A stretch of DNA of 53,244 nt, counting the filler, from Jimgerdemannia flammicorona (lineage: Eukaryota), in assembly GCA_003990765.1 (NCBI GenBank). It is 3 parts of 3 records of this genome, joined end to end, with 100 filler letters (N's around TTAATTAATTAA, not from the genome) between each part and the next. Parts side by side here need not be neighbours in the genome. Positions count along the whole stretch, not along the records: positions 35,565 to 53,244 come from RBNJ01002454.1; 2 more parts are not named here. One strand, 5' to 3'. This document shows positions 5,951 through 53,244 of the stretch, in pieces. The first letter of the stretch is position 1, and each line of letters opens with the position of its first letter. The translations under genes and the position numbers were made by a program. The notes below the pieces were generated by a model. The model did no database searches and was not told where the DNA came from. It saw only the letters and a list, made by a program, of their open reading frames with translations.

Positions 5951-6074
5951 AATAATAATAATAATAATATAATAATAATAATAATAAATAAATAAATAAA
6001 AATAAGTAAGTAAAAAATAAGTAAATATATAAGTAATAAATAAATAAGTAAGTAATAAATAAATAAATAAGAAA

Positions 6075-12274: not shown

Positions 12275-12280
12275 ATCTTT

Positions 12281-12339
<59 letters not shown>

Positions 12340-17683: not shown

Positions 17684-17783
17684 NNNNNNNNNNNNNNNNN
17701 NNNNNNNNNNNNNNNNNNNNNNNNNNNTTAATTAATTAANNNNNNNNNNNNNNNNNNNNNNNNNNNNNNNNNNNNNNNNNNNN
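17684..17783. other. Artificial contig spacer (N44-TTAATTAATTAA-N44)
   Basis: Exactly 100 nt with a six-frame-stop linker at 17728-17739. Confidence 0.97.
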
Positions 17784-18029
17784 GATGGGTGATTCGGATG
17801 GGTGATTCGGATGGGGCGATTCGGATGGGGCGATTCGGATTGAGTGATTCGGATTGAGTGATTCGGATTGGGGTGGTTCGGATGGGTGATTCAGATGGGG
17901 CGATTCGGATGGGGCGATTCGGATTAAATCCGAGTTGATCCGGATGGCTTCGGATTTGAGATTCGAATCAAACCGTCATGTGACGAATCGAATCCGGATT
18001 TGATTCGAATTGACTCGTTCGGAGCACTA
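17784..18029 (-). mobile_element. Left end (TIR plus 13-14 bp subterminal repeats) of a third hAT copy, reverse orientation
   Basis: Reverse complement of ~41326-41570: a (GGATGGGTGATTC/GGATGGGGCGATTC)n array ending TTGACTCGTTCGGAGCACTA. It is inserted into the gag region of the adjacent LTR element. Confidence 0.9.
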
Positions 18030-21720: not shown

Positions 21721-21749
21721 GAAAAATCAAAAATTCAAATATAAGATAA

Positions 21750-21965
21750 TCTTTTTTCAAAAACCTGACCTCTTTCAAAAATCTGATTTTTTTTCAAAAA
21801 TCTGATCTTTTTTGAATACCTAACTTTTTTTTAAAAACTCAACCTTTTTTAAAAAACCCAACCTTTTTTTTAAAAAACTTAATCTTTTTTGAAAACCCAA
21901 TCTTTTTCAAAAACCTGACCTTTTTTAAAAATTTAATCTTTTTAAAATATAATCTTTTTGAAAGA
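21750..21965. repeat. ~21-bp tandem repeat (AAAACCTGACCTTTTTTCA-like, ~10 units), probably intronic in the hAT remnant
   Basis: Visible periodic AAAA(A)CC(T/C)(G/A)A(C/T)CTTTTTT units. Confidence 0.7.
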
Positions 21966-21969
21966 CTTA

Positions 21970-27900: not shown

Positions 27901-29197
27901 TTCATCATATCACTATAGTATCAATATAGAAAATACAACACCCATCTGGTAGAAACTCTATAGAATACCCTATCACTTAAAACCATTTAAAAAGGAGCAT
28001 ATTCAAGAACTCTTAGACAATGGAGTTATCTGACCCTCTATCAGCCCCTGGGCCAGCCCTATACTTATTGTACCAAAGAAAAGAGGATGGAAACTCTATG
28101 TAAATTACAGGAAACTCAATTCAGTCACCAAAAAGAATATCTATCCTTTGTCCAGAATTGATGACCTTTTGGATCAGTTATAAGATACCAGATACTTCAG
28201 CAGTATGGACCTTTTCATAGGATTCCATGAGATCTTCATGGACCTTAAAGATACTCAAAAGACAGCCTTTCTTACTCTAGGAGAACTGTTTGAATACCTC
28301 TGAATACTCTTTGGACTTTACAATACCCCTCCCACCTTTTAGAGAATGATGAATTCAGTCTATACTTCCCTGATCTACCACTGCCTGATTGTATATATAG
28401 ACAATTCCAATAACTATTTAGCAAATTTTGAAGAACACCTACACTACCTAGAAGAATTCTTCAAGCTCACCTGCAAGAATCACCTGAGACTCAATGCAAA
28501 GAAATACTACTTTGGAAAACAGAAACTTGAATTTCTTGGATTCATAGTTTTGAAAAAAGGAACCCATACAGACCTAAAGAAAACTGAGAAGATCAATAAT
28601 TGGCCAGTACCCAAGATCCTGAAGAAAACACTATCATTCCTGATACTAGTATCCTACTATAGAAGATTTATCAAGGACTTTACCCAAATCGCTGTTCCAA
28701 TCTGAGTCCTTCTCAAGAAAGGAGTACCTTAAAAATGAACAGAATCACAAGAGAAAGTCTTCAAAGAACTCAAGAACTGCATAACCACAGCACCAATCCT
28801 TGTATGCCCCAATTTATGGAAGTTATTCATCTTGTATATAGATGCTTCCAAAGATGGCCTAGGAGTAATTCTAGCCTAAGAAAGATCTGACCAATAACAC
28901 TATGTGATAGCTTATGCAAGCTGAGCTACTAATTAGCAGCAGATGAACTACAGTAGCACCAAACTGGAATACCTTACAGTCATATGGGCAGTTACTCTAT
29001 TTAAGCATTACCTCATTGGAAAAAGGTTCACCCTGATCATAGACCATGCAGCCCTCAAATAACTATTCAACTATAAGAAACCTACCAGAATTCTAGCCTG
29101 CTGAATCCTTATTCTTCAGGATTACAAAATCACCATTATCTACAAAGCAGGAAAAGCTTATAATAATATTGATAAACTTTTCTACCAGTCCCAATGA
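21970..29197 (+). mobile_element. Ty3/Gypsy LTR retrotransposon with dUTPase (LTR-gag-PR-dUTPase-RT-RNaseH); integrase absent from this contig
   Basis: The 5' LTR ends ...ATGTTATA at 23272 (start approximate), followed by PBS TGGAGGCTC (tRNA-Pro-like) at 23275. Gag LPIFAGYPEEDP (~23840), knuckle VQCFYCR*FRHYATEC (~24685-24732), protease ILIDIGVA (~25380), [15 protein letters not shown]...VNYRKLN...[10 protein letters not shown]...VYIDN (27900-28600) and RNase H FILYIDASKDGLGVIL (28825-29150). Confidence 0.9.
26960..27376 (+). pseudogene. dUTPase domain within Gypsy pol
   Basis: One frame with 3 stops carries all five motifs: DIGYDL, SRSGL, GETIDSGYIG, RGQKIAQ and TRQAKGFGS. Confidence 0.92.
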
Positions 29198-32800: not shown

Positions 32801-35464
32801 GCGAAGTAGTAGACTGGTGCATGGTAAGAATTCAGAAAGAAGTCAGGGAACTTAAGGAGGTGCTATGATTGGAGGAAGAGGCTAAATTGAAGGAGATGGT
32901 GGTAAGGTTGAGGTAGCAAGGGTTGGAGGAAGGGGAGCAGCCCACTTGGTTTTTATCACAGATATTATGAGTGCGGAGAACTAAGCAGCAGTGGGATGGT
33001 GTCTTAGATGAGGATAGAGAGATGGTGGTGGGGACTCCAGCGATTCTAGGATTGCTAAGGTCCCACTGGGAGGACCTATGGAGTGAGGAAGAAGGGATGG
33101 AGATGTCTTGGACATTGAATAGCAGTTGGAGAGTTGGCATCTGAACCCAGTGATGGGTCTAGGGGCTCTGGGGGACCAAGTGAGAGGGGAGGAGGTGTGC
33201 AAGGTCCTGGCTTCAACAAGCAAGGGGATGGCACCAAGAGAGGATGGACTTTCCTGGGATTTTTGGAAAAAGATGACCAGGGTGGAGGCAGTGCTGGAGG
33301 AGTTGATAGAGATGTGTGATGAGGTTCTTCAGTCTGGAACTTAGATTGGGGGCCAGCATCTAGGGCTGGTCTCTTTGCTCTTTAAGGATAAGGGGAGAAG
33401 AGAAGATTAGAAGAACTGATGTCTGATCATGCTCCTTGATATGGACCATAAGCTGGTTATGAAGGTCTTGGTGACTAGGCTGCAGGGGATCACTCAGCAA
33501 GTGCTGGGAGTTGAGCAGAGAGGTTTTGTTGGTGGTCAGTTGATTTGAGATAGGACAGCCTAGGCCCATGGAGTGATTGAAGGGGCTTGGGCTACTGGGA
33601 TTGATGGCCAACTAGTGTTTCTGGATCAGGAGAAGGCTTATGATCGAGTGCAGAGGATCTGGCTAGAGGGGGTACTGAAGCAGGTGGGTGTTTCACCAGG
33701 GTTCAGGAGGTTGTTAATCAGTCTTTTGGAGGACAGTCAGGCAGCCTTGGTGGTTCATGGGGTACTGCAGGGGGATCCTCTGTCATCCATCTTGTATGCC
33801 CTTTCCTTAGAGCCTCTATTGGACAGGATCAGGCATTGAATTGGGGGTTTGGACATTCTAGGGATTAATTGGAAGATAGGGGCCTTTGTGGATGATATGG
33901 TAGTTGGTTTGGATTCATTGGCAGATGTGGAGGAATTACAGTGGACTGTAGAATGGTATGAGAGTGGCTCTAGTACTAGGCTCAATTGGCACAAATATGA
34001 GACTATGGTATTGGGTGGAGGAATAGTTAGTGGCGACATGATTGGGATAGTGGTGCCAGCAGAAGATCTCATTCACTATCTGGGGATCTACTTCTCCATA
34101 TATGGATCTCTCCTTCCTCATATTTGGTGGGAACAGTGACTCCTAATATGGGGGGATGTGCTTTTACAGTGGGGCAGTCAGCATATTTCCTTGGCAGGAA
34201 GAGTGATGGTACTGAATGTGTATTGGCTACTAAAGTTGTGGTATATGGGGTACCATCTGGACTTCCCAGCATGGGTTGTCAGATACTTTCTGAAGATGGC
34301 AAGGACATGGATCTGGACTGGGTGGCAGAGTCAGATAGGATGAGAGGTGCTGACTCTACCTGTGGATAGTGGTGGACTGGGCTTGGTAGACTTCCCCAAA
34401 TGTCTTCATTGCTTGCAAGCATGGTGGCTGAAGAGGGCAAGTGAGTTACAGGGACAGAAGTGGGTACCACTCATGCAAAGGGTGTGGGAGGCCCAGTATT
34501 CCCCCCACAGTACATCTGGTGATCTGCTTGCAATGGTGGCCCTGGATGGGAGCAAGAGGATGCAATATAAGGGCTTTTGGTAGGGGGTAGTAGATGGTGC
34601 CCAGAGAATTGGTCTGCAATGGCAGGGTGATGAAGGTGAGGGAGATTGGGGACTGCAGATGTGGAGATAGGATAGGCTTCTGTTAGGTGCTTCTTTGGTA
34701 GAAGACTTTTGGCTTAACAATGGTATGGAGTGCTTGCGGGGCTTAGGGGGGGACCTGTGGCCTATTGTGTGGCAGAGGGTGGGGATCAGTGAGGGGTGAA
34801 ACTGGAATGGGCTTTTGCCTTGGAGCAAAAAGGTGATGCGGTGGCTCCCCCCCAAGTTCTGGGTGGTGTGGTAGCAGTTTCTAAGGTGGAATGTGATGTT
34901 GAACTTTCAGTCTGAGCACTCAGTGGCAGATGGCTAGTATGAGTGTGAGGAATGTTTGGATGTTGGACAGGAAGGGGGAGTGATTCAAACACCTGAACAT
35001 TGGCTTGGTGAGTGTGACACTCTAGGGGTTTTTTGGAACCACATTGTAGACAGGTTAGGGCTGCGAGCACTGGTAGGAGGGGAAGGGGGGAGATGGGGAG
35101 AGCTTCACTGCAGGTTAGTGGGGGGGGTTGGTGATGAATGGCTGATTCTAGGTTGGGCTCTAGCAATTTGGGTTGGACTAGCTGGACATTGGTTATATGT
35201 ATTCGAGGAGGGTCAGTAGATAGGGATTGGAGATAGGGTAGCATGGTGGAAATGGCTGTTATTGGACATTTTGAATAGCTGGTGGCAGGGGTGGGGATCT
35301 GGAGGGGGTAGATGCCAGGGACTAGTGAAGTGTATGTGCTGGAAAAGTAGAGGATGGGTCCGGGTGGTGGGTGACTGAGTCATCTTCCAACAGAGAGGAG
35401 TAGAGGGGGGTGAGGGGGATCCAAGGGGTATTGGGTGAGGTGATGGGGGTAATATTGTATTATT
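29817..35464 (+). mobile_element. Near full-length L1/Tx1-clade LINE, copy 1 (ORF1 plus APE-RT ORF2, pseudogenised)
   Basis: ORF2 from ~31810: RIFSLNVNGL, DLFLLQD, GGDFN and PWSDH (APE); APREDGLSWDFWK, VFLDQEKAYDRV, GVLQGDPLSSILY and AFVDD (RT); GGLGL; C-terminal EC..C...TPEHWLGEC. Confidence 0.93.
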
Positions 35465-35564
35465 NNNNNNNNNNNNNNNNNNNNNNNNNNNNNNNNNNNN
35501 NNNNNNNNTTAATTAATTAANNNNNNNNNNNNNNNNNNNNNNNNNNNNNNNNNNNNNNNNNNNN
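35465..35564. other. Artificial contig spacer (N44-TTAATTAATTAA-N44)
   Basis: Exactly 100 nt with the linker at 35509-35520. Confidence 0.97.
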
Positions 35565-35688: not shown

Positions 35689-37975
35689 ATATAAAAGACA
35701 AACACTCTGACAAAATTAAAAAGAACATGGAGACAAATAAAATTGACATCCAAGCTATAGTGGGTACATTTATCTGATTGCCTGACTATTTCTATACCAA
35801 TAACACTGTTTAATCAAAAATATTTAGCTATACTTATTAGTAGAATTTCAAAATCAACTCATTTGCTGGATTGTGTATATAGATCAGCCATTTACAACCA
35901 TCAAGAGTGATCAATTATATAGCATCTTTGGCCTCAAGCATGATTTATATTTGCTAAATACCAATACTATTTGCAAAGATATCCTGGAGGCCTATAGGAA
36001 GGAGTACAACAATCTCTGCCAGATACTTCAGGTAAAATAAGAGCAGCACCATGACCTTTGCAAGCTGAATTATATAAAAGAGCTCACCAATTTAACCTCA
36101 CATTCAATAAGCAGAAATCAGCAGGCAAAATTTTATTTATAATCAACACATAGACATCCCTCAATATAATTTCATTTCTGAGCATTACCAGTCATTGGAT
36201 TGACCTCTTAAATCTCTCACCCTTGACTTCATTAAACTTGCTGGCCCTCATTCTGGAGACAATATTACAGATGCTTTTATTAGTTGTATCCAGGAGCTTG
36301 GAATCACAACTAAGGTAAAAAAGAAGGGCTTGCTGTCAGGTTGGTGTTTTGAGGGAGGTCCTAAAATAAACCAGATTTTATTAGTTATTTATTTTCACAT
36401 AAATTTGCTGACTGAATATTTCAAGTACAGATTTTAGCCATTATGATAGACAATGCTACAAACAACTCAACATTTTTCCAAGTTTTAGCAGCCAGTCTCA
36501 AATAGAAAAATATAGCCTTCAGTATAGAAAGCTACTGTGTATGATATCAGATCCACATACTGAACCTCACTATTCAGGACTATCTTATACATATATGTAA
36601 ACAAAACATCTAAGAGGGAAGGGGCCCTGAGTATAATTTCTAAGCTATACAAACTAATTGTGTTGATCTGATCATTCTCACAATGATAAGACAAATTTAC
36701 TACACAGTGTAGGGCAATCAGTTTAGCCCCAAAAGAGCTTATATTAGATGTCTGTACATGTTGGAACTCAATATTTGCAATGATCCAGTGTATGCTGGAG
36801 TTTGCTGTAGTATGTATTCTTTTTTTCTTCAGTTAGCTGAAGCAACTTGTTTCAGATAATTGAAGATTTATTTTTAAAAAAAACAATAAACAAAAAAAGT
36901 CAATAGATTCAATGGTGACTGCCAACAAGGAAATATGGGCTGAGGCTCTAGGTGAAAGTAAGTGGGATGTACTTAGGAATGTTGTCAGAGTTTTGAAAGT
37001 AAGTGGTGATTGCTCTGACTCTATACTCATTTTGTCTATCTCTACATAATGCAATACCTCACTACATATAACTGCCAGTATTTTGATGATTGTACAAAGA
37101 ATATAGTTAAACAAATGACCCTGACAATAAGCTTGGCAATACTAGTATACAACCTTCTGATTGACTGGCTAGAGGACAAGCTTGAGGACAGGCTAGAGGG
37201 TTGCAGTAATTTATAGTTGAGCTTGAATCAGAGAGACACCATGGAGGTTGCTCTAAGTAAGCTCAGAAAATACTACTCCCAAACAGATACCACCATATAC
37301 TCAATCAGTACAGGTATATTGATGTCAGTATATGGCCATTACCACTTTCAAAACAGAGAAACCCCTGCAAAAACTCACTCTTTCTTTTTTTCAAACAGTG
37401 CTAGACCCATGCTTAAAGCTATAATACTATAAAGATCAGGGCTGGGAGCAACACTTCATTAAGAGAACCAAGTAGGCCATAATCAAAGTGTACCAGAAAA
37501 ACTATGTGCCACCACAAGGTTCCAGCCAAAGTTTAGATGAATATGCCAAAAGATCCCTCCTATCCCACATTTACTTCAGCAGAAAGAGGAAGAGGGAACC
37601 ATCAGTAGAAGAGCTGCCATCAATAGATGAACTTACCATTTACCTTACCAGTGACCACATGATCCTGCTGGAGGGCATGGAGGTACTCAACTGGTAGAAG
37701 GTGGGTTGTCAGATAGGTATTGGGCCAATTTAACCCACCAATCTAACTACTGCTCTACCCACTGCTCTACCCACTGGGGCATGCAGCTGCATCAAACAGA
37801 CTTCCCCAGCCTATGTAGTATGGCTTAAGACTATCTGGCAATTCCTGCCTCCAGTACTCCTGTCGAGCAGGTGTTCTCAGATAGGGTGGACCTCATTGCT
37901 CTAAAGAGGTGTATACTGAATGCTGAGACAATCCAGATATGTATGTATCTGAAGTCTGAGCTGCTAAAATTCAGT
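35689..37975 (+). pseudogene. hAT transposase, copy A
   Basis: IDNATNN, HILNL, TCWNSIFAMI, LDP.LK and DYLAIPASSTPVEQVFS, with the same intron positions as copy B. Confidence 0.9.
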
Positions 37976-38870
37976 AGGTCCTGGGGGTTTGCAGATAAGT
38001 CAGTTGGTCTTATAGAATATTTAATATCTTTCAAAATAATAAAAAGGTAAAAAATCCTGAGGACTCAGCCCAGAGTTTGTGGCCCAAGTAGGGCTGTGAT
38101 CAGCAGAGTTGGTGGCAGTGGCAGAGAGAGTATGCAGTATTTACAGCCCTCCACTAGCAGCAAGGGGCAGCCCCAAGCTATCAGTATCTGGGTTGGTAGG
38201 TGGGTCAGTGGGTGGGCATGGGGTTAGTGGAGGAAGCATACAAAATTTGTGGCCCTCTGCTGGCAGCAAGGGGCAGCCCCAAGCTGCAAGTATTCTGGTT
38301 GGGGGGATTAGTGGAGGGGGGGAGGCAGAGGGGGGGTAGGTGGAGAGAGTGCACAAAATTTGCAGCTCTCTACCAGTAGTGAGGGACAGCCCCAAGCTGT
38401 CAGCATCTGGGTCAGTAGATAGGATCAGTCAGCAGGGTTAGTGGGCACAGGGTCAGTAGAGGAAGTGTATAAAATTTGTGACCCTCTACCAGCAGCAAGG
38501 AGCAGCCCTAAGCCACAAGTATCTAGGATGGGTGGGACAGATAGAGGGAGCATGCAAAATTTGCAGCCCTCCATCAGTAGTATAGAGGCAGCTCTGAGCC
38601 ACCAAGGAGTCCAGGGCAGAGAGTACTTCTGGCAGTTGGAGGGCATTTGGAGGATACTTCCAGCAGTCAAAGTCTATCACAGATTTGGGCCCCATTACCA
38701 GTTTGGGTCCTACAGGCCAAGGGGCTGATAGGGTCCTGTATAACAGCTAAGCTAGTGCTACAGAAGAGATGTCCAGCCCAACTCCCCACATAAGACTGCC
38801 CAATCTATACAAAATAACTGCCTAACCCTTACAAAAGACTGCCTATCCCTTGTAAAAGATTGCCTAATCC

Positions 38871-40865
38871 TTACAAAAACTGCTCCATCTGCTGATCCCA
38901 GGCCTTAATGAGCCTATTATCCATTGTAAGTATGATGACTATTATGTCTGAGTTCTCCTCAAAGGTAATGATACCATAGTAGTTGTATAGTTAGAAGAGG
39001 ATGGCCATATTGGCCACAAACAGGACTCCAAAACCATAGGTGAGATCATACTAGACTCCTCTGCTATTCTCCCAAGTTGGGCCCTTCCTTTTCAGATACT
39101 AGAGTGACATTGTTGTCTGTGTATATGGGTAGAGAAATATTATATCTGATGTATTCTGATGTGACACGAGTGTATAGTTGGGTGAACCCTTGGCCCAGGA
39201 CCTCATACTGCTAGGCTATGCTGATAGATACCTGCTCTTGGTCCAGCTCTGGGAGCCCTGGCTTGGAAACCTGCCAAAATAGATAGCAACCAGTCAGTCC
39301 TTTTTGTATATGAGGGGGCAGAAATCCCCCAGGCTACAGAAACCCCCTGGGCTGCAGAAACCCTCTGAGCTGCAGAAATCTCCCAGGCTGTAGCATCCCA
39401 AAAAAGGGGAGCTCCTCACCTCATATGGTATGCTAAATTGTACTAAGAATATATGTACAGCTATACCAAGATCACCACCAAGCTGATCTGCTATATACTC
39501 TATCAATCTGCTCAAAAAACCCCAGATCATAGCTGCTATCACCATACAGGCCATGTCATGCTCACATGTAGTTTGCTCTTCAACAGTACTTCTAAAGTTC
39601 TGATAGAGGTATAGAATCTTATATATCCCTGAAATTGTATCAAAAAAGAGTATGTTGGCAAAGAGTGTGATTTATCTGGAGAGGAGAAAAAAAAAGAGAG
39701 ATAAGTGTGGAGGATTTCAAAACTCCAGAACCCACCCTTTACCAGTATTGCAGTATACCCAATTCCCATCCAAACCCCCCCTCCTTGCTTTTTTTGCCCC
39801 CTCTTTCCTACCACCTAGTATTTGATACAATTCTTGCAAATCTCATTGATGTAGTGGTGAAGCTCATTGCTATAGAGGTTCCTTACCACCATCATAACCA
39901 CCTCTTTATATGTATTCATTAATAATAATATGGTTCTCTTCATCATTGGTTATTCCTACTGACCAATGGACTCCTTGGTTGAGAACAATTGGCTTTGATT
40001 TGAATATAGACCTCAAGCCTTGATGATGATGCTGATACTACTTATGCTGAATATCTTGCTCTTGAATTTCTCTATTTGATCAGATGCCAGATGTGGTTGA
40101 ACTCAGGTAACTTTGAACTCTCCTTTCTAATGGAACTGAGCCCTAATCTGAGGGACTGAGATAAGTGTGTGGATGGGTTGTATATGGACAGGTTGCATGC
40201 AGATAGGTTGTATGCAGGCAGGTTGCATATAGGTGTGGGTGTTTTTTAGGAGGAGACCATGTAAAAAATGAAATTAAATAAAACATGGAGATGGGTATTT
40301 CAGAAAAAGAGTATAAGTAAGTAAGCTACACACTGACAAGTTGTATATCAATAAGTTGCATGAGTTGCACAAGATTTCTCATGAAGGCTTGCTTCTGTTC
40401 CTTTTGAGACCTCTACCACATAATACATTGACTCAACAGCTCAGCCACCAAAGGCATGCCCCACAATGTCTACTAGTCTTTCTTCATCTTGACCAGATAT
40501 TGTGAATAAAGTCAGCAGATCTTACTGTAGAACTGTAGACCCTAAGAAAAGCACAAGATAAATTGGGTCATGCTGGAGAAATTTAAATAAATATAAGTAA
40601 ACAAGTAGTGGCTGAGTGAGCAACCTACATCTACTATCAGTTGCTCCAAAAAGGCTACCACATATATAGCTGTGAGGTCTGTGAATTCTGAGGTCTGAAG
40701 AGTCACTATGAGTTGTTGCCAGAATTCTCTCTCATCTCTACCATCGCTACCACCATCACCACCACCATTGCCATCATCATCACCACTACCATCGCCACTA
40801 CTGTTACCCCTTTGGCTCTCGATGAGCAGCTTGTGTACTACCCATATGAGAAAGAATCCACCTTT
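38871..40865 (-). pseudogene. TET/JBP-like dioxygenase passenger gene, copy A (decayed)
   Basis: Homologous to 45425-47400. HxD reads YTD at 39115-39123 (CAC>TAC), the distal motif reads YYG, and there are multiple stops and a deletion. Confidence 0.6.
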
Positions 40866-41429
40866 CTCAGCTAACATTCATGTTACACATACTTTACAAC
40901 ACACTCTCAAGTCATTTATTGGAGAAAGGTAATAAGAAAATGGCAAACAACAAGCATTCTAGAGTGCATACTGGGTAGAGCAGCCCTAGCATGTTTGACT
41001 GGCAGCAGGTGAGGAGAGGTCCTGGCCTGGGGGGTGGCATGAGAGGGCTGTTGGCAGGAGGACAAGAAGGAGGTGGAGGCAGCAGTGGAGGACAGGGGTC
41101 TGAGAGGGCAAGCTTTGCAGAGATGGTGAAGGAGAGGTAGCAGATAACAGAGCTGGAAGGTTGGCTAAGGAAAGGCAAGAAGAAGGAGATGATAACAGTT
41201 CGTGGGGGAGTAGCACTTGGGGGTGAGGGCAGTAGAGCTGGGAGAGTAGTGGCTGGGGGGGGTGTGATGGTTGATAGTGACAAGACTGCCAATCTGGAAA
41301 AAAATCCAGATGTGATAGCTGATGGTAGTGCTCCGAACGAGTCAATTCGAATTAAATCCAGATTCAATTTGTCACATGACAGTTTGATTCGAATCTCAAA
41401 TCCAAAGCCATCCAAATCAATTCGGATTT

Positions 41430-41830
41430 AATCCGAATCGCCCCATCTGAATTGCCCCATCTGAATCACCCATCTGAATCACCCTAATCTGAATCACTCA
41501 ATCTGAATCACTCAATCCGAATCACCCCATCCGAATCACCCATCTGAATCACCTCAATCTGAATCACTCAATCTGAATCACTCAATCCAAATTGCCCCAT
41601 CTGAATTGCCCCATCCGAATCACCCATCTGAATCACCCATCCAAACCACCCCAATCCAAATCACTCAATTCGAATTACTCAATCTGAATCACTCAATCTG
41701 AATCACTCAATTCGAATCCTCCAATTCAAATCCTCCAATTCAAATCCTCTAATTCGAATTCTCCAATTCAAATCCTTCAATCTGAATCCCCATTCAAATC
41801 CTTCAACTGAATCCTCCAATCCAAATCCTC
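41430..41830 (+). repeat. hAT left subterminal array of 13-14 bp units (C[C/T]GAATCACCCAT / C[C/T]GAATCACTCAAT)
   Basis: About 25-30 direct units. A related GATCAATC[C/T](G/A)GAT array lies at the right end (~47660-47820). Confidence 0.9.
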
Positions 41831-41889
41831 CACATGACTCATATGCTGGATGTGTTCACAATACAACACACACACACACATATACACAT

Positions 41890-44530
41890 ATGCATACACA
41901 TGTATATGTATACACAAATACGCAAACACATATGTTGACAGATCAGTCTTCAACAGTTCACAGTACCAATGATACTTCAAGTCAAACATCCCTGATAGTT
42001 CCACACCTTCCATGCAATCCTCACTCCGAAATCTGGCAACATTGTGCTAAGATAGGAGATGATGTTGTTTGTAATTATTGCAGGTAAAAAATTAAGACGC
42101 ACCTATTGACACTTTGTTTTGATACACACATGATATTGTTTTGACACACACATGATATTATTTCATCCACCCCCATGAACTGCACCAGCCAGAAGTTCAA
42201 AATGCTTGGGGGTATGACTTCGAACACGAATCAACACATAAAAGACAAGTACTCTGACAAAATCAAAAAGAACATGGAGATAAATAAAATCGACATCCAA
42301 GCTGTAGTGGGTATGTTTATCCGATTGCCTGACCATTTCTGTACCAATAATGCCATTTAATCAAAAATATTTAGCCATACTCTTCGGCAGAATTTCGAAA
42401 TCAGCTCATTCGCTGGATTGTATACACAGACCAGCCATTCACAACCATCAAGAGTGATCAATTGCATAGCATCTTTGGCCTCCTCAAGTATGATTTATAT
42501 TTGCCAAGTGCTGATACTATTCACAAAGATATTCTGGAGGCCTATAGGAAGGAGTATGACAATCTCCACCAGACACTTCAGGTAAAATAAAGGCAGCACC
42601 ATGACCTTTGCAAGCTGAATTATATAAAAGAGCTCACCAATTTAACCTTATATTCAATAAGCAGAATTTGGCAGGCAAAATTTCATTTACGATCGACACA
42701 TGGATATCCCCTAATGCAATTTCATTTCTGGGCATTATCAGTCATTAGATTGACCTCAATTGGCAGCTTAAATCTCTCACCCTTGACTTCATCAAACTTG
42801 CTGGCTCTCATTCTGGAGACAACATCACAGATGCTTTTATTAGTTGTATCTGGGAGCTTGGGATTACAACTAAGATAAAAAAAAAGGGGGGCTTGCCATC
42901 AGGTCAGCATTTTGAGGGAGGTCCTTAAACAGAACAGATTTTGTTAGTTATTTATTTTCACATAATTCACCAACTGAATATTTCAAGTACAGATTTTGAC
43001 CATTACAACAGACAATGCCACAAATAACTCAACATTTTTCCAAGCTTTAGTGACTAGCCTCAAACAGGAAAACATGGCCTTTAGTACAAAAAGCTGCCAT
43101 GTGCGATGCCAGGCCCATATACTGAATCTCGCTGTTCAGGACTATCTTACGCACATAGACAAAACATCCGAGAGAGGAGGGGCCCTGAGTATAATTTCCA
43201 AGCTATGCAAACTGGTTGTGTCAGTCTGATCATTCCTACAATGATGAGACAAATTCACTGCATAGTGTAGGGCAATCAGTTTAGCCCCAAAAGAGCTTAT
43301 GTTGGATGTCTGTATACATTGGAACTCAACATTTGCAATGATCCAGCACGTGCTGGAGTTTGCTGTAGTATGCATCCTTTTTTTCTTTGGTCAGCTGAAG
43401 CAACTGTTTTGGATGATGGAAGATTTATTTTTAAAAAAAAAAAAAAGCCAATAGATTCAACGATGGCTACTGATAAGGAAATATGGGCTGAGGCTCTAGG
43501 TGAAAGTGAGTGAGATGTACTTAGGAATGTTGTCAGAGTTTTGGAAGTAAGTAGTGGTTGCTCTAGCTCTACACTCATTTTGTCTATCTCTACACAATAC
43601 AACATCTCACCACATATAACTGCCAGTGTTTCGACAATTGTATGAAGGATATAGTCAAACAAATGACCCTGACAATAAGCTCTGTGATACCAGTATACAA
43701 CCTTCTGATTGACCAGCTAGAGGACAAGCTCGAGGACAGGCTGGAGAGTTGCAGTGATTTACAGTTAAGTCTGGATCAGAGAGATGCCATGGAGATTACT
43801 CTAAGCAAGCTCAGAAAATACTACTCCTAAACAGATACTGCCATATACTCAATTAGTACAGGTATGTCAATATCAGTGTATGGCTGTTGCCCCTTCCAAA
43901 ACAGAGGAAACCTCGCAAAAACTCACTCTCCTTTTCTTCAAACAGTGCTGGACCCACGCTTAAAGCTACAATACCATAAAGATTAGGGCTGGGAGCAACA
44001 CTTCATTGAGAGAATCAAGCAGGCCATAATCGAAGTATACTAGAAAAACTATACACCACCACAAGGTTCTGGCCAAAGTCCAGATAAATATGCCAAGAGT
44101 TTCCTCCTGTCCCACATTTAATTCAGCAGCAGAAAGAGGAAGAGGGAGCCATCAGTGAAAGAGCTGCTGTCAATAGACGAACTCACCATTTACCTCACCA
44201 GTAACTACATGATCCTGCTGGAGGGCACAGAGGTGCTCAATTGGTGGAAGGTGGGTTGTCAGGTGGGTATTATCAGGCAGGTATTGGGCCAATTTAACCC
44301 ACCAACCTAACCACTGCTCTACCCACCAGGGCATGCAGCTGTGTCAAATGGACTTCTCCAGCCTGTGTGGTATAGCTCAGGACTACCTGGTAATTTCTGC
44401 CTCCAGCACTCCTGTCGAGTGGGTGTTCTCAGGTAGGGTGGACCTTGTTGCCCCAAAGAGGTGTGTGCTGAATGCTAAGACAATCTGGGTGTGTATGTGT
44501 CTGAAGTCTTAGTGGGGCTTGGGCCGCTAA
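41890..44530 (+). pseudogene. hAT transposase (BED finger, DDE core, C-terminal dimerisation domain), at least 8 introns
   Basis: SEIWQHC..VVCNYC/..TSN..HI (BED), ISFTIDTWISP, ITTDNATNN, HVRCQAHILNLAVQD, WNSTFAMI, VLDPRLK, VLNWWK and AQDYLVISASSTPVEWVFS. Introns at ~42084-42188, 42311-42390, 42582-42664, 42875-42992, ~43368-43455, 43547-43626, 43862-43945 and 44251-44337. There are scattered stops and the start is uncertain. Confidence 0.93.
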
Positions 44531-44639
44531 AATTTGGCAGGTCTACGGATAAGTTGGTTGGCCTTGTGGAATATTTAATACCTTTCAAAATAATAAAAAA
44601 GGAAAAAAAAACCTGAGGACTCAGCCTGGAGTTTGTGGC

Positions 44640-45150
44640 CAAAGTGGGGCAGGGTTGGCAGTGGCAGCAGAGGGAGCATGCAATATTTGTGGCCCTCAGC
44701 CAGTAGCAAGGGGCAGCCCCAAGCTACCAGTGCCTGGGTCAGTGGGTGGGTCAGTGGGTGGGTCGGTAGGTTGGTGGGTCAGTGGGCAGTGGGCGGGTCA
44801 GTGGAGGGAGCATGCAAAATTTGCGGCCCTCTGCCAGTAGTAAGGGGCAGTCCCAAGCTGCAAGTGTCCAGATCAGGGGGGTAGGCAGAGAGAGCACACA
44901 AAATTTGCAGCCCTCCACCAGCAGTGAGGGGCAGCTCCAAGCTGTCAGTGCTCAGGTCAGTGGGCAGGGTCAGTTGGCAGACATGGGGTTGGCAGAGGGA
45001 GCATGCAAAAATTTGCAGCCCTCCGCCGGCAGCAAGGGGCTGCCCCAAGCCACAAGTGTCTGGGATGGGCAGGGCAGGCAGAGGGAGCATGCAAAATTTG
45101 TGGCCCTCCACCAGCAGCATAGGGGCAGCCCCAAGCCACCAAGGAGTCTG
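44640..45150 (+). repeat. ~80-130-bp GC-rich tandem repeats between the two convergent hAT genes
   Basis: About 5 units with core GGGAGCATGCAAAATTTG(C/T)GGCCCTC..CAG(C/T)AG(C/T)AAGGGGCAGCCCCAAGC. The same array is present in copy A (~38110-38620). Confidence 0.85.
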
Positions 45151-45424
45151 GGACAGAGGGTGCTTCTGGTAGTCGGAGGGTGCTTCTGGTGGTCAGAGGG
45201 TATTTCTGGTGGTCGAAGTCACCAGTTCAGGTCCCACAGGCACCCTGGCCCTGCACCGCAGTACTGCACTGGTGGTACTACAGAGTAGGGCCAAGGGGCT
45301 GGTAGGGCCCTGCATAATGGCTAAGCTAGTGCTACATAAGAGGTGTCCAGCCCAACCCCCCCACATAAGACTGCTCAATCTGTACAAAATGGCTGTCTAA
45401 CTCTCATGAAAGATTGCCTAACTC

Positions 45425-47458
45425 TCACAAAAACTGCTCCATCTGCCGGTCCCAGGCCTTGATGAGCCTGTCATCCATTGTGAGTATGATGACTGTTGTG
45501 TCCGAGCTCTCCTCGAAGGCAATGGTACTGTGGTAGTCATGTGGTTGAAATAGGATAGCTGTGTTGACTGCAAATGGGACCCCGAAACTGTAGGTGAGGT
45601 CATACCAGACTCCACCACTATCCTCCCAGGTTGGGCCCTTCCTTTCTGAGATATAAAACATTACTGGGGTGATATTTTTGTCTGTGTGTATGGGCAGAGA
45701 AAGGTTGTACCCAACATATCCTGATATGATGTGAGCATATAGTTGGGTGAACCCTTGGCCCAGGACTTCATACTGCCAGGCTGTACTGGTGGATGCCTGC
45801 TCTTGGTCCAGCCCTGGGAGCCCCAGCTTGGAAATCTGCCAAAATGGATGGTAACCAGTCAGTCCTTTTTGCGTTCAGGGGGGCAGAAACCCCCTGGGCC
45901 GCAGAAACCCCCTGGGCTGCAGCACCCCAAAAAGCAGAGCTCCTCACCTCATACGGCATGCTAAATTGTACCAAGAATATACATACAACTGTGCCGAGAT
46001 CACCACCAAGCTGGCCTGCCATATGCTCTACCAATCTGCTCAAAGAACCCCAGATCATAGCTGCCATTACCGCACAGGCCATATCATGCTCACGTGCAGT
46101 TTGCTCTTTGATGGCACTTCTAAAGTTCCGGTAGGAGTACAGAATCTTGTGTATCTCTGGAATTGTATCAAAAAGAGTATGTTGGCAAAGAGTATGATTT
46201 ATCTGAGGAGGGGTTAAAAAAAAAGGGAGACAAGTGTGGGGAATTTCAGAACTCTGGAACCCACTCTTTACCAGTGTTGCAGTATACCCAATTCCTGTCC
46301 AAACCCCCCCTCCTTGCTTTTTTTGCCCCCTCTTTCCTACCACCTAGTATTTGACACAATCCTTGCAAATCTTGTTGATGTAGTGGCAGAGCTCATCACT
46401 GTAGAGGTTCCTTACCACTATCACAACTACCTCTCTGCATTCATTAATAAAGATATAGTTCTCTTCATCATTGGTTACTCCTGCTGGCCAATAGACCCCT
46501 TGGTCGAGTATGATTGGCTCTGATTTGAATGTAGACCCCCAAGTCTTGATGACGATGCTAGTACTGCTCATGCTGAACATCTTGCCCTTGAATTTCTCTA
46601 TTTGATCAGACACCAGATGTGGTTGAATTCGGGTAACTTTGAACTCTTCTTTTTAGTAGAACTGAGCCCTGATCTGAGAGACTGAGATAAGTATGTGGAT
46701 GGGTTGCATGTGGGTGGGTTGCATGTGGGCGGGTTGTGAGCGGGTTGTATGTGGGCAGGTTGCGTGCAGGTGGGTTGCATGCAGATGGGTTGCATGTGGG
46801 TTACATGCAGGTGTGGGTGTTTTTTAGGGAGAGACCACGTAAAAATGAAATTAAATAAAACATGGAGATGGGTATTTCAGAAAAAGAGCATGAGTGAGTG
46901 AGCTGCATACCAACGAGTTGCACACTGATGAGTTACATAAGTTGCACAAGAATTGCTCACAAAGGCTTACTTTTGTTCCTTTTGAGACCTCTGCCATGTG
47001 ATGCATTGACTCAACAGCTCAGCTACCAAAGGCATGCCCCACAACGTCCGCCAGCCTTTCTTCATCTTGACCAGATGTTGTGAATAAAGTCAGCAGATCT
47101 CGCTGTAGAGCTGTGGACCCTAAGAAAAGCATGAGGTGAATTGGGTTGTGCTGGGGAAGTTTAAATAAATACAAGTAAACAAGTAGCAGCTGAGTGAGCA
47201 ACCTATATCTACTATCGGCTGCTCCAAAAAGGCTGCCGTGTACATAGCTGTGAGGTCTGTGAATTCCGAGGTCCAAAGGGCTGCCATGAGTTGTTGCCAG
47301 AATTCTCCCTCATCTCCACCATCGCCATCGCCACTGCCACCACCATCACCCCTTTGGCTCTCGATGAGCAGCTTGTGTGCTGTCCATATGAGAAAGAATC
47401 TAACATTGTCAGCAGAGAGTGTGTTTCCACCTCAAATACTCTCTCTTTTGACAATCAT
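45425..47458 (-). pseudogene. Spliced passenger gene encoding a TET/JBP-like Fe(II) dioxygenase (2OG-FeII double-stranded beta-helix fold)
   Basis: The 3' exons ~46680-46272, 46202-45948 and 45772-45425 join in phase 0 via GT-AG introns. Translation includes YIFINECREVVVIVVRNLYSDE, GVWTGIGY and GYVGYNLSLPIHTDKN...DSGGVWYDLTYSFGVPFAVNTAILFQPHDYHSTIAF...DTTVIILT. HxD is at 45680-45688 and the distal His at 45530-45532. There is one stop (TAG, 46344-46346) in the 46613-45425 core. The 5' exons and ATG 47458 are tentative. Confidence 0.7.
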
Positions 47459-50400
47459 TGCAGAGTGAAAAATGAGTAGACTGGACCAATGTATGAATTA
47501 AGGGCTGCTGTTTTGTTTGCTCATGATGCAGCAGGAAAGAATAAAGAAAAAGAACAAAGAAAAGAGAGGGAACAAAGGAAAGGGTGATATCACCAAAGTG
47601 TGGTAGAAAAAAAAAAACAAGAGCAAAATGAACAAAAGAAAGAGTGATGTCACCAAAGATTTCAATCTGGATGAATCAATCTGGATAGGTCAATCCAGAT
47701 GGATCAATCTGGATGGATCAATCTGGATCAATCCAGATCAATCCAGATCAGATCACGAGACCAATCTGAGTTAATTCAAATCTATCACATAATGAATCTG
47801 AATCGAATCTCATCTGGATCAACTCCATTTGTTCGGAGCACTAGCTAATGGTATGGCTGAGCAACTGAGGCTTAGAAGGTAGAGAGATTTGACAGATGAT
47901 GTGATGGGCCTGGTAGTGGTACTGTTACTTAAGAAATTGATCTTAACATTTATAGTGACATTGTGCTTCTAAGGCCTGGTGGTGATGGTGAAAATTGTGC
48001 TGGGGCTTATTACTAAGCAGGTGACTAGAGCAGCATCCATGAAGTTTCTGAAGGGATTGGAGGGAATAGAGGTAGGTTTTAAGGAGGCTGAGCCCCTGGA
48101 GGAAGCGCTGAAGGTTGGATTGATTGTTGGAGAGGTATGTATCCCAATGACATGCTGTCTGAAATGGAACCCCAGGGTGGTCCAACTGCTGGTGAAAAGA
48201 GTGTCCACAGTGACAGCAATGGAGATAAGAAGGAGAGTTGAGGAGGTTATGGTAGAGTATAGTGAGATAGTGGATATCAGGTTCAGGGTCTGGGAAGGGA
48301 CCTCACTCAGGACTGGGGATGTGGATGTGCAGATTTGGCTGGCAGAGAAAGAAGCTACAAGGAAGACAAGAAACTGGCCTTCAGTGATAGTCTGGGGGGT
48401 GATCTTATGCAAGGTGACAAGGGTGAAGGGGAGTGAAGAGGAGAAAGAAGACTTGCTGGAGATACTGAAAGAGATGAGTGGAGTGGTGGAGTAGTGGGCA
48501 AAGGCTTAGAGGTCCTTTGTGGAGTTGGCACACTTAGAGGTGGTGGATGGGAAGAGGATCAGAGTGGACAAGGAGTAATAAAAAAAAGCTCAGGGCCATA
48601 AATGTCAGAAGAAGTTACTGGCTAAGATGGAGAGTTAACTGCTGAAGGAGGCAGGTGGAATGGTGGAACCAGGGGGTACTAAGGTGAGTGTCTGGGCTGG
48701 TAAGAAGGGTGAGAATACAGGGAAAAGAACAGAGGAGGACAGGAAAGCAGCTGGTGGCAACCTGTATGCTGATGGTATACTTGAGATCTGGGAGGAGAAC
48801 TGGAAGGGATTGCCTACCCCTACCCCTCACATCAGACAAGGACTAGCTTACTGGAGCAGGGCAGAAGAGAATATGCCAATAAAGGGGGTCCAGAGAGTAC
48901 AATTTAGTATGCCTGAGATAGCAAATGGGAGACAGGTGGTGGCAGTTAGAGAGGAGAAATTGGTGGATGTCCCAGAGGTGTGAGATGAGACTGTGAGTAC
49001 CAGGGCTGATACCACAATATTGGATGATAAAAGACTAGTGACCCCAAGAGGGAAGGAGGTGGGAAATCTACTTTGGATGTGCAGAATAATGAATAACCTA
49101 GTGGTTGAAGAGCTCAGGGAGGTAGACTTGAGGGTGATGAGTGATGAGCATTGAGTGTGGGTATTGCAGGGAGATGATGTGGAGTTGGTATTGAAGGCAG
49201 AGATCCTTGTGGTGTATCTGGAGGAGAAAGGATATGAAATGGATAAGAAGCAAGAGGCTGAACTAGCAGGGGTTGCTGGTGAGAGGGCCAAGTACTGTTG
49301 GGTCAAGAGATATGGGTTGCAGCTCTAGCAGGAGGCCTGCCTGAAATACTGAGAGGAGTTTGAGGAGAAGGTAGATAGAGAGATGAATAAGCTATTGGCT
49401 AGATTGGAGGCTCAGAGAGCTGAAGAGGAGACAGTGACTGCAGAACATAATCTAGACATGGTACAGAAAGAGATGAACTTGGAGCAGTAGAGATGGACTG
49501 AATAAAAACAATATACTTCAATATGAATAGTACAACCAACATTTTTTCAATAAATGTAAATGGGTTATGGGGTGCTTTTTGATGAAAGAACATTTTTACT
49601 TGGCTGAAGGGATTGGAGGCTGATCTCTTCCTCTTGCAGGATATCAGGTGTAAAGATAATCTGGATAAACTGGAATAGATGAAGGAATGGAGAGGTGAGG
49701 TAGTTTGGATAGGCAAGGTTGGGATTCTGATATGGAAAGGCAGAGAGGAGATAAGGGATATACAGAGCTGGGAGAATAGACTGGTCTGGGGCAAGTGGAT
49801 ATGTACTGGATGAGAGCCAATTACAGTGGGATCTTATTACTGTCCTGCTATATGGAGTGAGCATGTGGACTGGGTGAAGGGTTTTCAAGAGAGTGAGATA
49901 CTCACAGAAGCTGGGGTGGATATACTGAGTAGAGACTTTAATATGGTTTGAGAGGTATTGTTAGACAGAATAGATAGAGAACAAGGAGTTGAGGGTCAGA
50001 GTGGAGGGCTGGCAGCATGGGAGGAAGTAAAAAGACTGAGTACTCTGGTGGATATAGGTAGGAAGTACTGAGGGGATAGGAGGGTATATATATATTGGGC
50101 AGGAGGCTTGGGGATGAGAATTAATTGGATTCTGATAGCCAGCTGCTAGGGTTTGAATATTTGGAGATTACTAGTGAAATGGTGTCCTTGATCAGATCAT
50201 TGGGGAATTCTTGGACAGGGTCAGTTTGGGGAGAGTGGGGATGGGCCTGGACATTGGCACCTCAATTCCTCCTTATTAGATAATAGGATCTGGTGGAATG
50301 GGTGGGCTGCAGACATTCAGCTACAGGTAGAGTGTTGAAGGCAGGAAGGTACTCCAGTGGGTATTTGATAGATAAGGATGAAGGAGATGGCCAAGACATA

Positions 50401-53244
50401 CTGGAGTGAGGCTAGCAAGGAGGCTGGGAAACAGAGGAGATAAAGGTGAGATGGGCTTCTAGTAGACTGTCTAGGCTCTTAGGAGATTGGGTGAAACTGG
50501 TAACATTGGAGGGGGAGGAGAATTGGAGATCCATAAGGGTGAAAAAGGAGGTTGGTGAACTACAACAGGTGCTGCGGAAGGAGGAGGAAGCGAGGGTGAA
50601 GGGCTTGGCAGCTAGGCTATATTGGCAGAGTTTAGAAGAAGGAGAGAGGTCCTCTAAGTTTCTCACAAGAGCCCTTTGGACAAAGAGAGTGCAACAAAGA
50701 TAGGAAGGGGTGCTTGACTTTGATAGTATCCTGGTCTATAGTATTCAAAACATTCTTGGATCTTTAAAGGAGCACTAGAGTGGATTGTGGAGTGAGGAGG
50801 AGGGTGGGGTAGATGCCAATGTGATTGGCTATGCATTAGAAGATTGACAACCCCCACAAGTAGATGGAATAGATGACTTGGTGTTGCCAGTCCAAGAGAA
50901 GGAGATCCACTAGGCTCTCACCATGACAATGCCAAGTATGGTATCTGGAGAAGATGGTTTGCCCTGGGATTTCTGGAAGAAGATGGTCAGGATTCCAGGA
51001 GTACTGGGTAAGATGATAGTATTGTATAATCTTATTCTACAGACAGAGAGATGGGTGGGGAAACAGGATCTGGGGTTGGTGATATTGCTCTACAAGAACA
51101 AAGGAAGGCAAGAGGACTAGAAGAACTAGAGGCCAATTATACTCTTGGACATGGACAGAAAGTTGGTTACTAAGGTAGTGGTTGCAAGACTACAAATAGT
51201 AGCATAGCAAATCTTGAACATTAAGTAGAGGGGCTTTGTAGGGGGATGGCTCATTAGGGATAGTATGGCCTGGGTACATAGAGTTATTGAAGGGGCATGA
51301 GCTTATGGTTTGGATGGGTACCTGGTCTTCTTGGACCAGGAGAAGGCTTACAACTGGGTGAGGTGAGTCTGGCTGGTGAAAGTTTTGGATAGGGCTGGAG
51401 TTCCACACCAGTTCCAGTTAGTGATGGTCAGTCTACTGGAAAGGAGTAAAACAGTACTTATGTATAATGAATATCAAGAAGTGGCTTTTCCTCTAGGTAG
51501 GGGGGTGCCCCAGGGGGACCCATTGTCTCCCATTTTGTATACCCTTTCCCTGGAACTACTACTGGATAGAATCAGGTGGAAGATAGTGGGACTCTCCATC
51601 TTTGGTATTGGGTGGAAGATAGGGATCTTTGCAGATAACATGGTGGTCAGACTGGGATCAATTGCTGATATCGAGGAGCTTAAGAAGACAGTGGAGTAGT
51701 ATGAGGAGAACTCTGGAGTAAGACTTAATTGGCATAAGTATAAAACAATGGTGTTAGGCAATAGTCTGATAGGCAGGGAGGTTATTGGAACAATCATCTC
51801 TGCTGGTGAGACAGTATAGTACTTGGGTATCTATCTATTGGTATATGGGTCAGTACTACCCAGGCTTTGGTGGGAGCAGTGGGTTGGTATCTAAAGGGAG
51901 GCCCTGCAGAGTTGGGGGGGCCATCAATTGTCCCTGGCAGGGTATATTACAATTTTGAACATCTACTGGCTGCCAAAGTTGTGGTATCTGGTATATCATC
52001 TAGACTTCCCATTCTGGGTGATGAAGTAGTTAATAAAGCTTACCAAGAGATAGATCTGAGCTGGAAGAAGGAGTCAGATAAGCTGGGAGGTCTTGTCCTT
52101 ACCAGTGGTGAGGGGTAGACTGGGACTGGTTGACTTTCTGAAGAGGCTATACTGCTTGAGGATTTGGTGGTTGAAGAGAGCCATGAAATTGAGAGGAGGT
52201 AGTTGGGTTCCCCTATTGTAGAAGGTTTGGGAGAAGCAGTCCTTGCCAAGAGGCTCAACTGACAATCTCTTATCTTTGGTTGGACTTCAGAATGCTAATT
52301 AATTGTGATATAAAGGCTTCTGGTGGGGGATAGCAGAGAGGGTACACTGTATCAAGATCCATTGGCAGGGGAATGAAGAAGAGGAGGATTGGGACCCAGT
52401 GATATGGAGATAGAACTAGGTGCTACTGGGTGGTATCCCATTACTTGAGTTTGACATTAGCTATGGAATAGACTATCAGAGGAGACTGGGCCAGAATCTG
52501 TGGCCCAGTGATTGGCAAGGTGTAGGAATTGACAAAGAGTGGAACTAGTATAGCATTTGGGCATGGAGTGCTGAGATGAGAAGATGGATGCTGCTGAAGT
52601 ACTAGGTGACTTGGTGGCACATGCTGAGGAGAAATGTCATGCTCAATTACTGCTCAGATCATCTTATTGAGGGGGGTTGTTTTGACTGCAAGGAGTGCTA
52701 TAATGTAGGACAGAAAGGGGGTTATATACAGATATCTGAACATTGGCTAGGGGAGTGTGAGATACTTAGTGACTTTTGGCAGACTGTTGGGGATCATTTG
52801 AGAGTAAGAGGCAGGGGAACTGGTATGTGGGGGCAGTAGGAGAATTTGAGAGACAGACTAGTGGGGGGGGGGTGAGAAAGGAATGGCTTATACTAGGCTA
52901 GTCTCTGGCCATTTGGGTTGGATTGGCCAGCTACTGATTATTTGTTATCAAGAATGGGAGGAGACTGAGCTTAGAGGTCTGACTGTGGTAATGGTATAGC
53001 CTTATGGAGGACACCTTGATGGACTGGTGGCTCAGTTGGGGGATACAGGGGGGCCAGAGGCATCATCTGGTGGAGAAATTTGTAGGCAGAGTAGGGGAAG
53101 AGTAGGAGTGGTGGGGGAGAAGGTAGTCTTTGCTTAGATTGGGGTAGAAAGAGGTCCTTCTATAGGAATTGAGTAGTGGGAGGAAGACTGTATATTTAAC
53201 AATAGACTAATAATAAATAGCAGAGTCTAAGTAACTATAAAAAA

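Follow-up and report, generated by a model that had tools for sequence, protein, structure and literature searches.

Genes of the TET/JBP type are carried by eleven lineages of fungal DNA transposons and have been divided into three types, PU, AG and PE (Kojima 2025, PMC12730594). The carriers include twenty TET-carrying hAT7 families in Puccinia (section 3.1.2 of that paper), and PE-type genes are cargo of transposons from Pezizomycetes and Agaricales. With HHpred, PE-type proteins reach CMD1 at an e-value of 1.4 only, whereas their AlphaFold-DB models match the structures of CMD1, NgTET and CcTET at e < 1e-5, CMD1 being named the nearest solved structure (PMC12730594). A counter-silencing role has been proposed for the published transposon types, with 'another activity' left possible for PU and PE (Kojima 2025, PMC12730594). 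In TET2 and NgTET1, two arginines (R1261 and R1896 in human TET2) hold 2-oxoglutarate (2OG) by its C1 and C5 carboxylates, whereas in CMD1 the arginine for the C5 carboxylate is not used and vitamin C serves as the co-substrate instead (PMC7854593). Transposons with a DNA-demethylation-type enzyme of their own are among the few eukaryotic mobile elements proposed to fight epigenetic silencing directly. Here we analyze a 53,244-nucleotide stretch of DNA from Jimgerdemannia flammicorona (assembly GCA_003990765.1; hereinafter, the window) that contains a structurally complete hAT-type DNA transposon, element B (41326..47843, plus strand, 6518 bp), with a second, spliced gene that we call the cargo gene. 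The best explanation of the findings as a whole, to which we assign a probability of about 0.62, appears to be that element B is a hAT transposon with a PE-like TET cargo that would have countered methylation-based silencing and is now a relic.

Element B is bounded by exact terminal inverted repeats (TIRs) of 13 bp, TAGTGCTCCGAAC, at 41326..41338 on the plus strand and 47831..47843 on the minus strand (0 mismatches), and, outside of these, by target-site duplications (TSDs) of 8 bp, GCTGATGG at 41318..41325 and its partner GCTAATGG at 47844..47851, which are alike in 7/8 bases, the sole mismatch being a G/A transition. It is the 8-bp flanks that match and not the 7-bp ones, a register read from one complete insertion only. 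The TIR occurs in exact form three times in the window, at 41326 (+), 47831 (-) and 18017 (-), in each case at the edge of the homology between copies; these are the 3 exact ones among 12 window matches with at most three mismatches. Within element B, the remnant of a hAT transposase spans 41950..44512 on the plus strand, with the C-terminal dimerisation domain at approximately 44354-44506: the last transposase open reading frame (ORF) matches Pfam PF05699 with an E-value of 2.2e-4 and 21.4 bits, exactly the curated cut-off. The motif RCQAHILNL, at approximately 43080, fits what we take to be a characteristic block of hAT transposases. The transposase region is broken by 37-43 stops per frame, its longest open stretch being 99 codons, and an 83-aa piece of it yielded no relatives among longer proteins in a word-index search. 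Short TIRs, an 8-bp TSD and the PF05699 domain jointly place element B in the hAT superfamily, as a cut-and-paste transposon of a fungus with hypermutation resembling repeat-induced point mutation (RIP). It is the second of two direct copies that lie in tandem, approximately 6.55 kb apart, in the last contig of the window (RBNJ01002454.1); the other, copy A (35691..40900, plus strand, delimited by homology to B), is older, truncated at both ends and 84% identical to B.

The cargo gene (47389-45425, minus strand) is oriented convergently with the transposase and lies wholly between the TIRs of element B. Our model comprises five exons of 1353 nt in total, or about 450 codons, and four introns of 83, 309, 108 and 112 nt, all of which are GT..AG. 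Exon 1 (47203..47389) has ATA (47389-47387) at the expected start, with MWTAHKLL facing MPAKLL of a 374-aa database relative, P0003; exon 2 spans 46971..47119; exon 3 (46265..46661) holds NYIFINECREVVVIVVRN and GGGVWTGIGYTAT; exon 4 (45948..46156) is defined by homology to P0003 and the gene model; and exon 5 (45425..45835) encompasses the HTD motif, a GG turn, a distal histidine and the stop codon TGA (45427-45425). Support for this structure comes from a tblastn search with P0003, in which residues 92-343 are covered in the right order with an E-value of 2.4e-23. Furthermore, intron 3 (46157..46264, 108 nt, GTGGGT..CAG), which is in phase 1 inside the Gly codon after GYTxx, is identical in position and phase to an intron of a metagenomic locus, L001 (..NFASG|MHSC..), the protein of which is only ~27-34% identical to that of the window; what appears to be an insertion of 36 codons after GIGYTATLVK is this phase-1 intron in the Gly codon. 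Because the gene model rests on homologues, the motifs INECREVVVIVVRN, GxGY and HTD-x49-H can be assigned to real exons, and all of them lie within those of copy B. Two other splicing models, one with a GTAAGG donor inside VVVIVVRN and one with an intron containing an in-frame TAG, were rejected because the homologues read on through these stretches. Thus, a preliminary description of this locus was right in reporting a TIR- and TSD-bounded hAT element with a second spliced gene convergent to the transposase and with these motifs in it. Positions 46676-46830, in intron 2, consist of CCCACATGCAAC-type units repeated in the manner of a microsatellite; copy A has 11 and 41 nt fewer here, and additional or repeated units occur at this place in contigs from a soil-metagenome run.

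The cargo protein belongs to a family that is very small, very rare and unannotated. When 1.84 billion representative proteins were searched with exon 5 (phmmer), 5 matches were obtained at E <= 0.001, four of them real, namely, P0001 (136 aa, 75% identical), P0002, P0003 and P0004; the fifth, P0005, is a bacterial immunoglobulin-repeat protein and was rejected as a family member. A word-index search with P0003 contributed P0006 as the sole additional relative, and a pattern scan of Joint Genome Institute metagenome contigs yielded 63 candidate stretches of which 2, L001 and L002, were confirmed. The same kind of scan in viral contigs gave 11 matches with 0 confirmed as relatives, and a word-index protein search with the 235-codon exon of the window, with X at the stop, found no match. 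Two histidines, H283 and H335, are invariant in 6/6 family sequences, and the aspartate is present in 5/6 as well as in L001; P0004 has Asn at this position, where its near-identical relative L001 has Asp. The first motif reads HTD in the window, P0001 and P0002, and HVD in P0003, P0006 and L001. In copy B, the candidate metal residues of exon 5 are the histidine encoded at 45688-45686, the aspartate at 45682-45680 and the distal histidine at 45532-45530. Hence an arrangement of the HxD/E...H kind, the iron triad of 2OG-Fe(II) dioxygenases, is found across the family, as HTD-x49-H in copy B, whereas copy A reads IYTDNN and LYNYYGI, that is, has tyrosine at both candidate iron-binding histidines, a difference concealed by the 'two-copy consensus' of the preliminary description. 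The conservation of these three residues, which that description had proposed as a check, therefore holds for the histidines and nearly so for the aspartate among the relatives but breaks down in copy A; it is the sole positive sequence fact that our own tools have provided.

A possible affinity of this family is suggested by comparison with the PE-type proteins, made by eye on the printed rows of Table S1 of Kojima 2025 (PMC12730594) rather than through a computed alignment. The PE-type proteins and the cargo family appear to share collinear motif blocks that follow in the same order along the whole protein: NYIF/ES.I..D, [IV]V..V.RN, SAG, LPR[LM]D, H-x-acid, GG.F[FY], G[IV].[VI], N[ST] and H[GA][TS]. 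In particular, QNYIFVDSNTKEIVGLVARN of a Morchella Helitron resembles EENYIFINECREVVVIVVRN of the window, the family form being NYIF..REVVVIVVRN; G.SAGSRS or GxSAGSRS of the PE type corresponds to YVSAGYTVS of the family, F.LFWN..R to SLLFATTSR, and LPRMD to LPRLDGG. A further similarity is a gapless block of 32 residues that spans the distal histidine, in which PE sequences of the form GGHFFLATHGIRVRAAANTVIAWKPMDWHATS face GGLFYNLAYGVGVPLASNTMVIFHSNQPHGST of the family; 9 of the paired residues are identical and about 9 more are conservative, under the common pattern GG-x-[FW]-[FY]-x3-[YH]-G-x-[RG]-[VIF]-x4-N-[ST]-x2-[IVA]-[FW]-x5-H-[GA]-[ST]. BLOSUM62 scores that we calculated by hand for two of the PE/family blocks are ~46 and ~44; these are our own arithmetic and not the output of a tool. 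The supplement of that paper contains HGTS at 10 places and SAGSRS at 7, and the places listed (9/9 and 7/7, respectively) are PE rows. The genomic setting is alike as well, a single extra gene in a DNA transposon, and the PE type, like the cargo family, is too distant from the classical TET enzymes for ordinary profile searches. The shared order of the blocks would make the cargo protein a divergent relative, probably a sister, of the PE type, which would place it among the TET/JBP-like Fe(II) dioxygenases, a reading that we find plausible, if unproven, and somewhat better than even. Our confidence is held at this level because the link was drawn by eye and our own fold test failed.

Several observations have to be set against this interpretation. 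To begin with, the connection to the PE type is derived from the reading of printed sequences, and the correspondence is incomplete. The PE hallmark is HxE, in place of which the cargo family has HxD (HTD or HVD); where the PE type has AGSR and the PU type GWRK(S), the family has AGYT, with Thr/Tyr and no Arg; and the position of the PU motif R-x-G-x-S is occupied by H, N, T or V, with no conserved Arg following the distal histidine (all by eye). Searches of the window exons, P0001-P0004, P0006 and the exons of L001 against Pfam, including Tet_JBP (PF12851), the profile named in the preliminary description, gave no family match at E up to 1 or up to 10. PHROGs searched up to an E-value of 10 returned chance-level rows only, and there were 0 matches among Protein Data Bank (PDB) chains at E up to 10, either in phmmer with P0003 or with a profile of the family. 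AlphaFold2 models of P0003 built from alignments of 6 and 10 rows have a mean predicted local distance difference test score (pLDDT) of 35.8 and 40.4, respectively, and are unusable; a Foldseek search of PDB with the better one (pLDDT 40.4) retrieved nothing at E <= 0.001. The best match, to herpesvirus gB (E 0.011, TM-score ~0.1), was discarded as noise. As both models are unusable and Foldseek yielded only noise, the double-stranded beta-helix of the 2OG-Fe(II) dioxygenases, the fold predicted for the cargo family, receives no support from this direction. Beyond the protein itself, no intact copy of the cargo gene was seen within the window, and purifying selection among recent copies is unsupported because all 8 exon differences between L002 and L001, which are ~99% identical, are non-synonymous transitions, two of them creating stops in L002. 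Finally, the arrangement of L001 differs from that of element B in that a second gene stands between the cargo gene and the terminus and the 3.7-kb contig holds no transposase. This second gene of L001 (2100-3370, plus strand) is spliced, has no Pfam match and has no counterpart in the element of the window. The resemblance to TET/JBP enzymes asserted in the preliminary description is thus upheld by the by-eye order of blocks shared with the PE type and not by any sequence match to Tet_JBP or PDB, so that its interpretation is partly supported.

With respect to the other described systems, the closest parallel in the type of carrier is hAT7 of Puccinia, which likewise belongs to the hAT superfamily and has a cargo of the TET/JBP type; moreover, GGKMWGIGWRKS of the PU type resembles GGGVWTGIGYTAT of the family (PMC12730594). 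The two differ, however, in several respects. hAT7 has 7-bp TSDs and starts with CAACGGTGGGC or CAGCGATGGGC (CAACGG.. or CAGCGA..), whereas element B starts with TAGTGCTCCGAAC and, as judged from its one complete insertion, has an 8-bp TSD rather than the 7-bp TSD that characterizes hAT7. The hAT7 cargo is of the PU type, with another C-terminal pattern, Y.HCT ... R.G.S.Q, and rusts show hypermutation at TCG sites (PMC12730594), as opposed to mainly CpA and CpG in copies A and B. Conversely, the carriers given there for the PE type do not include hAT, which is the carrier here. Six strings from the cargo family and its TIR (four peptide motifs, plus the TIR in either orientation) were searched for in the supplement of PMC12730594 with 0/6 found, DNA cells there being of at most 400 characters such that the internal DNA is only partly covered. 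CcTET and the AG type, known from Kyakuja and Zisupton of Coprinopsis and other Agaricomycetes, are Fe(II) dioxygenases linked to transposons, with HxD...H and a proposed counter-silencing role, as in our reading, but the AG rows show no block-wise likeness to the cargo family by eye, with NR.TP.HRD and WYD.L directly after HxD (PMC12730594); the activity and structure of CcTET are established, whereas the cargo family is known from sequence only. CMD1, the vitamin C-dependent 5-glyceryl-methylcytosine synthase of Chlamydomonas, combines a TET fold and HxD...H with a canonical 2OG arrangement that is left unused (PMC7854593); it is an algal host gene and not transposon cargo, and PDB searches detected no sequence match between it and the cargo family.

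That hAT elements should carry such genes is, therefore, no longer new because the phenomenon has been on record since December 2025, with hAT among the published carriers (PMC12730594), and the statement of the preliminary description that no report from hAT elements was known is out of date. What the present locus adds is threefold: a very rare branch of the protein, with HxD on a PE-like scaffold, no Pfam model and few database relatives; a carrier from another hAT lineage, with an 8-bp TSD and TAGTGCTCC ends; and a genomic background of clear hypermutation directed at CpA and CpG.

The signs of this hypermutation are clear. Between A and B there are 738 transitions and 44 transversions, and the fraction of C residues in B that are T in A is 60/116 (52%) at CpG and 299/895 (33%) at CpA, against 90/660 (14%) at CpC and 49/751 (6.5%) at CpT, that is, a RIP-like spectrum that affects mostly CpG and CpA. 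In copy B, the cargo gene has no ATG at the expected start, the ATA found there probably having once been ATG, and is interrupted by three in-frame stops, TGA in exon 2 (47021-47019) and TAA (46655-46653) and TAG (46343-46341) in exon 3, each derivable from TGG via G-to-A changes; the TGA stands at a Trp that is conserved in P0003 and L001 (alignment by eye). In a soil-metagenome run (X1), transitions account for 192 of the 197 differing places on the cargo stretch; two contigs of this run have C at 46653 and 46654, restoring TGG at the TAA (depth 51.4 of 53.4), and the TAG and TGA are not among the 40 of these 197 places that are listed. The cargo gene of copy A (~38830-40880, minus strand, by homology to B) contains 8 in-frame stops in the register of B and indels of 1, 4 and 11 nt, which amount to three frameshifts. 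The claim that the gene is conserved in the older copy thus stands only insofar as copy A exists at 84% identity; its reading frame is destroyed and both ends of the copy are missing. The cargo gene in both copies, as well as the transposase, has been inactivated by transitions, and the system seen here is a relic; in this sense the preliminary description, largely right in what it observed, is partly confirmed. In a genome with CpA/CpG-directed hypermutation, the cargo visibly failed to protect copies A and B, and the host defence won.

How the living element might have functioned can be outlined on the assumption that the PE-like TET identity of the cargo is correct. From an active element, both the transposase and the cargo enzyme would be made, and the latter would bind Fe(II) through three residues encoded by exon 5: H50 and D52 of the His-x-Asp motif and, 49 residues further on, H102. 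The enzyme would then flip out a base in the DNA of the element and most likely oxidise 5-methylcytosine (5mC), or modify another base, and this modification might remove or block both the methylation-based silencing by the host and the linked C-to-T mutation that is aimed at repeats. We infer this anti-silencing role, which is also the one that Kojima proposes for the published types (PMC12730594). Should intact copies exist, they would constitute a compact test case for action on 5mC and for the need for 2OG.

Could the cargo gene be something else altogether? An obvious alternative is that the gene encodes an accessory protein of this hAT lineage whose fold and role are different, such as a partner of the transposase that binds DNA or has a regulatory function; both the HxD..H pattern and the resemblance to the PE type would then be superficial. 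The failure of the Pfam, PHROG and PDB searches, the lack of a predictable fold, the absence (by eye) of conservation at the 2OG-binding arginine positions and the fact that the sole tie to TET/JBP is a comparison by hand are all in line with this possibility. However, it would have to explain at least six motif blocks in the PE order, one of them gapless over 32 residues that cover the distal histidine, along with the invariance of H283 and H335 across three deep branches of the family; in addition, the known TET-positive elements have the same genomic setting, that of a fungal DNA transposon with one additional gene (PMC12730594). On balance, we regard an accessory protein as unlikely, albeit worth keeping in mind. 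A less radical departure is that the cargo, although a TET-like Fe(II) enzyme, works with a co-substrate other than 2OG or on a base other than 5mC, so that it writes a different mark instead of erasing one. This variant draws on the Thr/Tyr that the family has where the PE and PU types have the Arg of G-x-x-G-[SW]-R (PMC12730594), on the lack of a conserved Arg after the distal histidine, on the precedent of CMD1, in which the TET fold has switched its co-substrate with the Arg for the C5 carboxylate unavailable (PMC7854593), and on the 'another activity' that Kojima leaves possible for PU and PE (PMC12730594). The residue correspondences involved are, however, insecure, having been established by eye, and an Arg eight residues before the histidine of HxD (GRCAS.PTH), present in 4/6 members, could substitute for the missing one, so that we consider this variant rather improbable. 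Equally speculative is its extension to a fourth type of transposon TET-like enzyme, in which HxD..H is kept on a PE-like scaffold, both 2OG arginines are lost and the enzyme, perhaps with another co-substrate, might deposit a base mark of a kind not yet described that shields the cytosines of the element from methylation-linked C-to-T mutation in a RIP-active fungus. If true, it would imply that acquisition of such genes by hAT elements took place separately in ascomycete-like and in rust genomes; we would not expect it to be so. Nevertheless, which co-substrate a PE-like enzyme devoid of both canonical arginines would use, and what activity it would have, seems to be a question worth following.

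The remaining alternative concerns not the protein but the status of the gene, which might be an ordinary host gene recently caught between two hAT ends or segmentally duplicated with them. The tandem position of copies A and B, 6.55 kb apart, and the lack of visible purifying selection between recent copies are what one would expect in this case. The gene, however, is enclosed by the TIRs and TSD of element B itself, and 616 contigs of one soil-metagenome run cover the cargo stretch at 80-100% likeness (70 at 99% or above, 162 at 95-99%, 259 at 90-95% and 125 under 90%), a gradation that marks it as a repeat within genomes. No series of single-copy orthologues exists among the 1.84 billion representatives. 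The relatives in another, A+T-rich organism are multi-copy as well, L001, L002 and P0004 being near-identical copies, and the differences between L001 and L002 suggest that C-to-T hypermutation of repeats occurs there too. Moreover, these relatives adjoin a similar terminus: the sequence at the 3' end of L001 is, in reverse complement, TGAGCTTCCAACGAGTC, with caaatc-type (gattt-type) repeats next to it, and the left end of the window element reads TAGTGCTCCGAACGAGTC followed by similar repeats, an indication that the distant homologue is likewise housed in a related element. A captured host gene therefore appears highly improbable, and the reading of the cargo gene as a resident of the transposon is the one that we retain.

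Several further features of element B and its surroundings deserve mention. Subterminal tandem repeats of 14 nt, aatctgaatcac-like, occupy 41417..41830, with similar repeats at 47660-47800, and degenerate G+C-rich repeats of ~110 nt separate the transposase from the cargo gene at 44550..45250 in B, with their equivalents at 38100-38650 in A. No convincing homology was found between the tail of copy A (40850-41325) and that of B (47400-48300), and for this reason the possibility that B is nested within the right end of A was dropped. A third copy is represented by its left end, the TIR with subterminal repeats, at 17789..18029 on the minus strand (89.5% identical to 41312-41567), and is interrupted by a contig joint. 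Indeed, the window consists of three contigs joined through two identical artificial spacers (44 N, TTAATTAATTAA, 44 N) at 17684-17783 and 35465-35564; adjacency across these spacers is meaningless because the contigs are separate.

Elsewhere in the window, sequence resembling non-long-terminal-repeat (non-LTR) retrotransposons is present at 48000-53244, 30000-35400 and 28343-28702, where the reverse-transcriptase domain RVT_1 is matched at 51367-51696 with an E-value of 3.6e-7 and at 28343-28702 with one of 6.9e-5, and where G strongly exceeds C on the plus strand (skew of 0.35-0.56). Two regions, 4000-16000 and 20000-23000, contain blocks of 13-31% G+C with a TpA/ApT ratio of 1.17 and a (CpA+TpG)/(ApC+GpT) ratio of 0.90; they have the appearance of repeats heavily mutated by RIP, and those at 4-16 kb are consistent with the RIP-like process seen in copies A and B. 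Inside the low-G+C blocks there is inverted homology, 4751-6023 against 13515-12270, at 74% identity. The sole gene piece in the window that does not look repeat-derived is an ORF fragment on the minus strand (1067-1408) with a class-I S-adenosylmethionine (SAM) methyltransferase domain (Methyltransf_11, E 2.2e-9).

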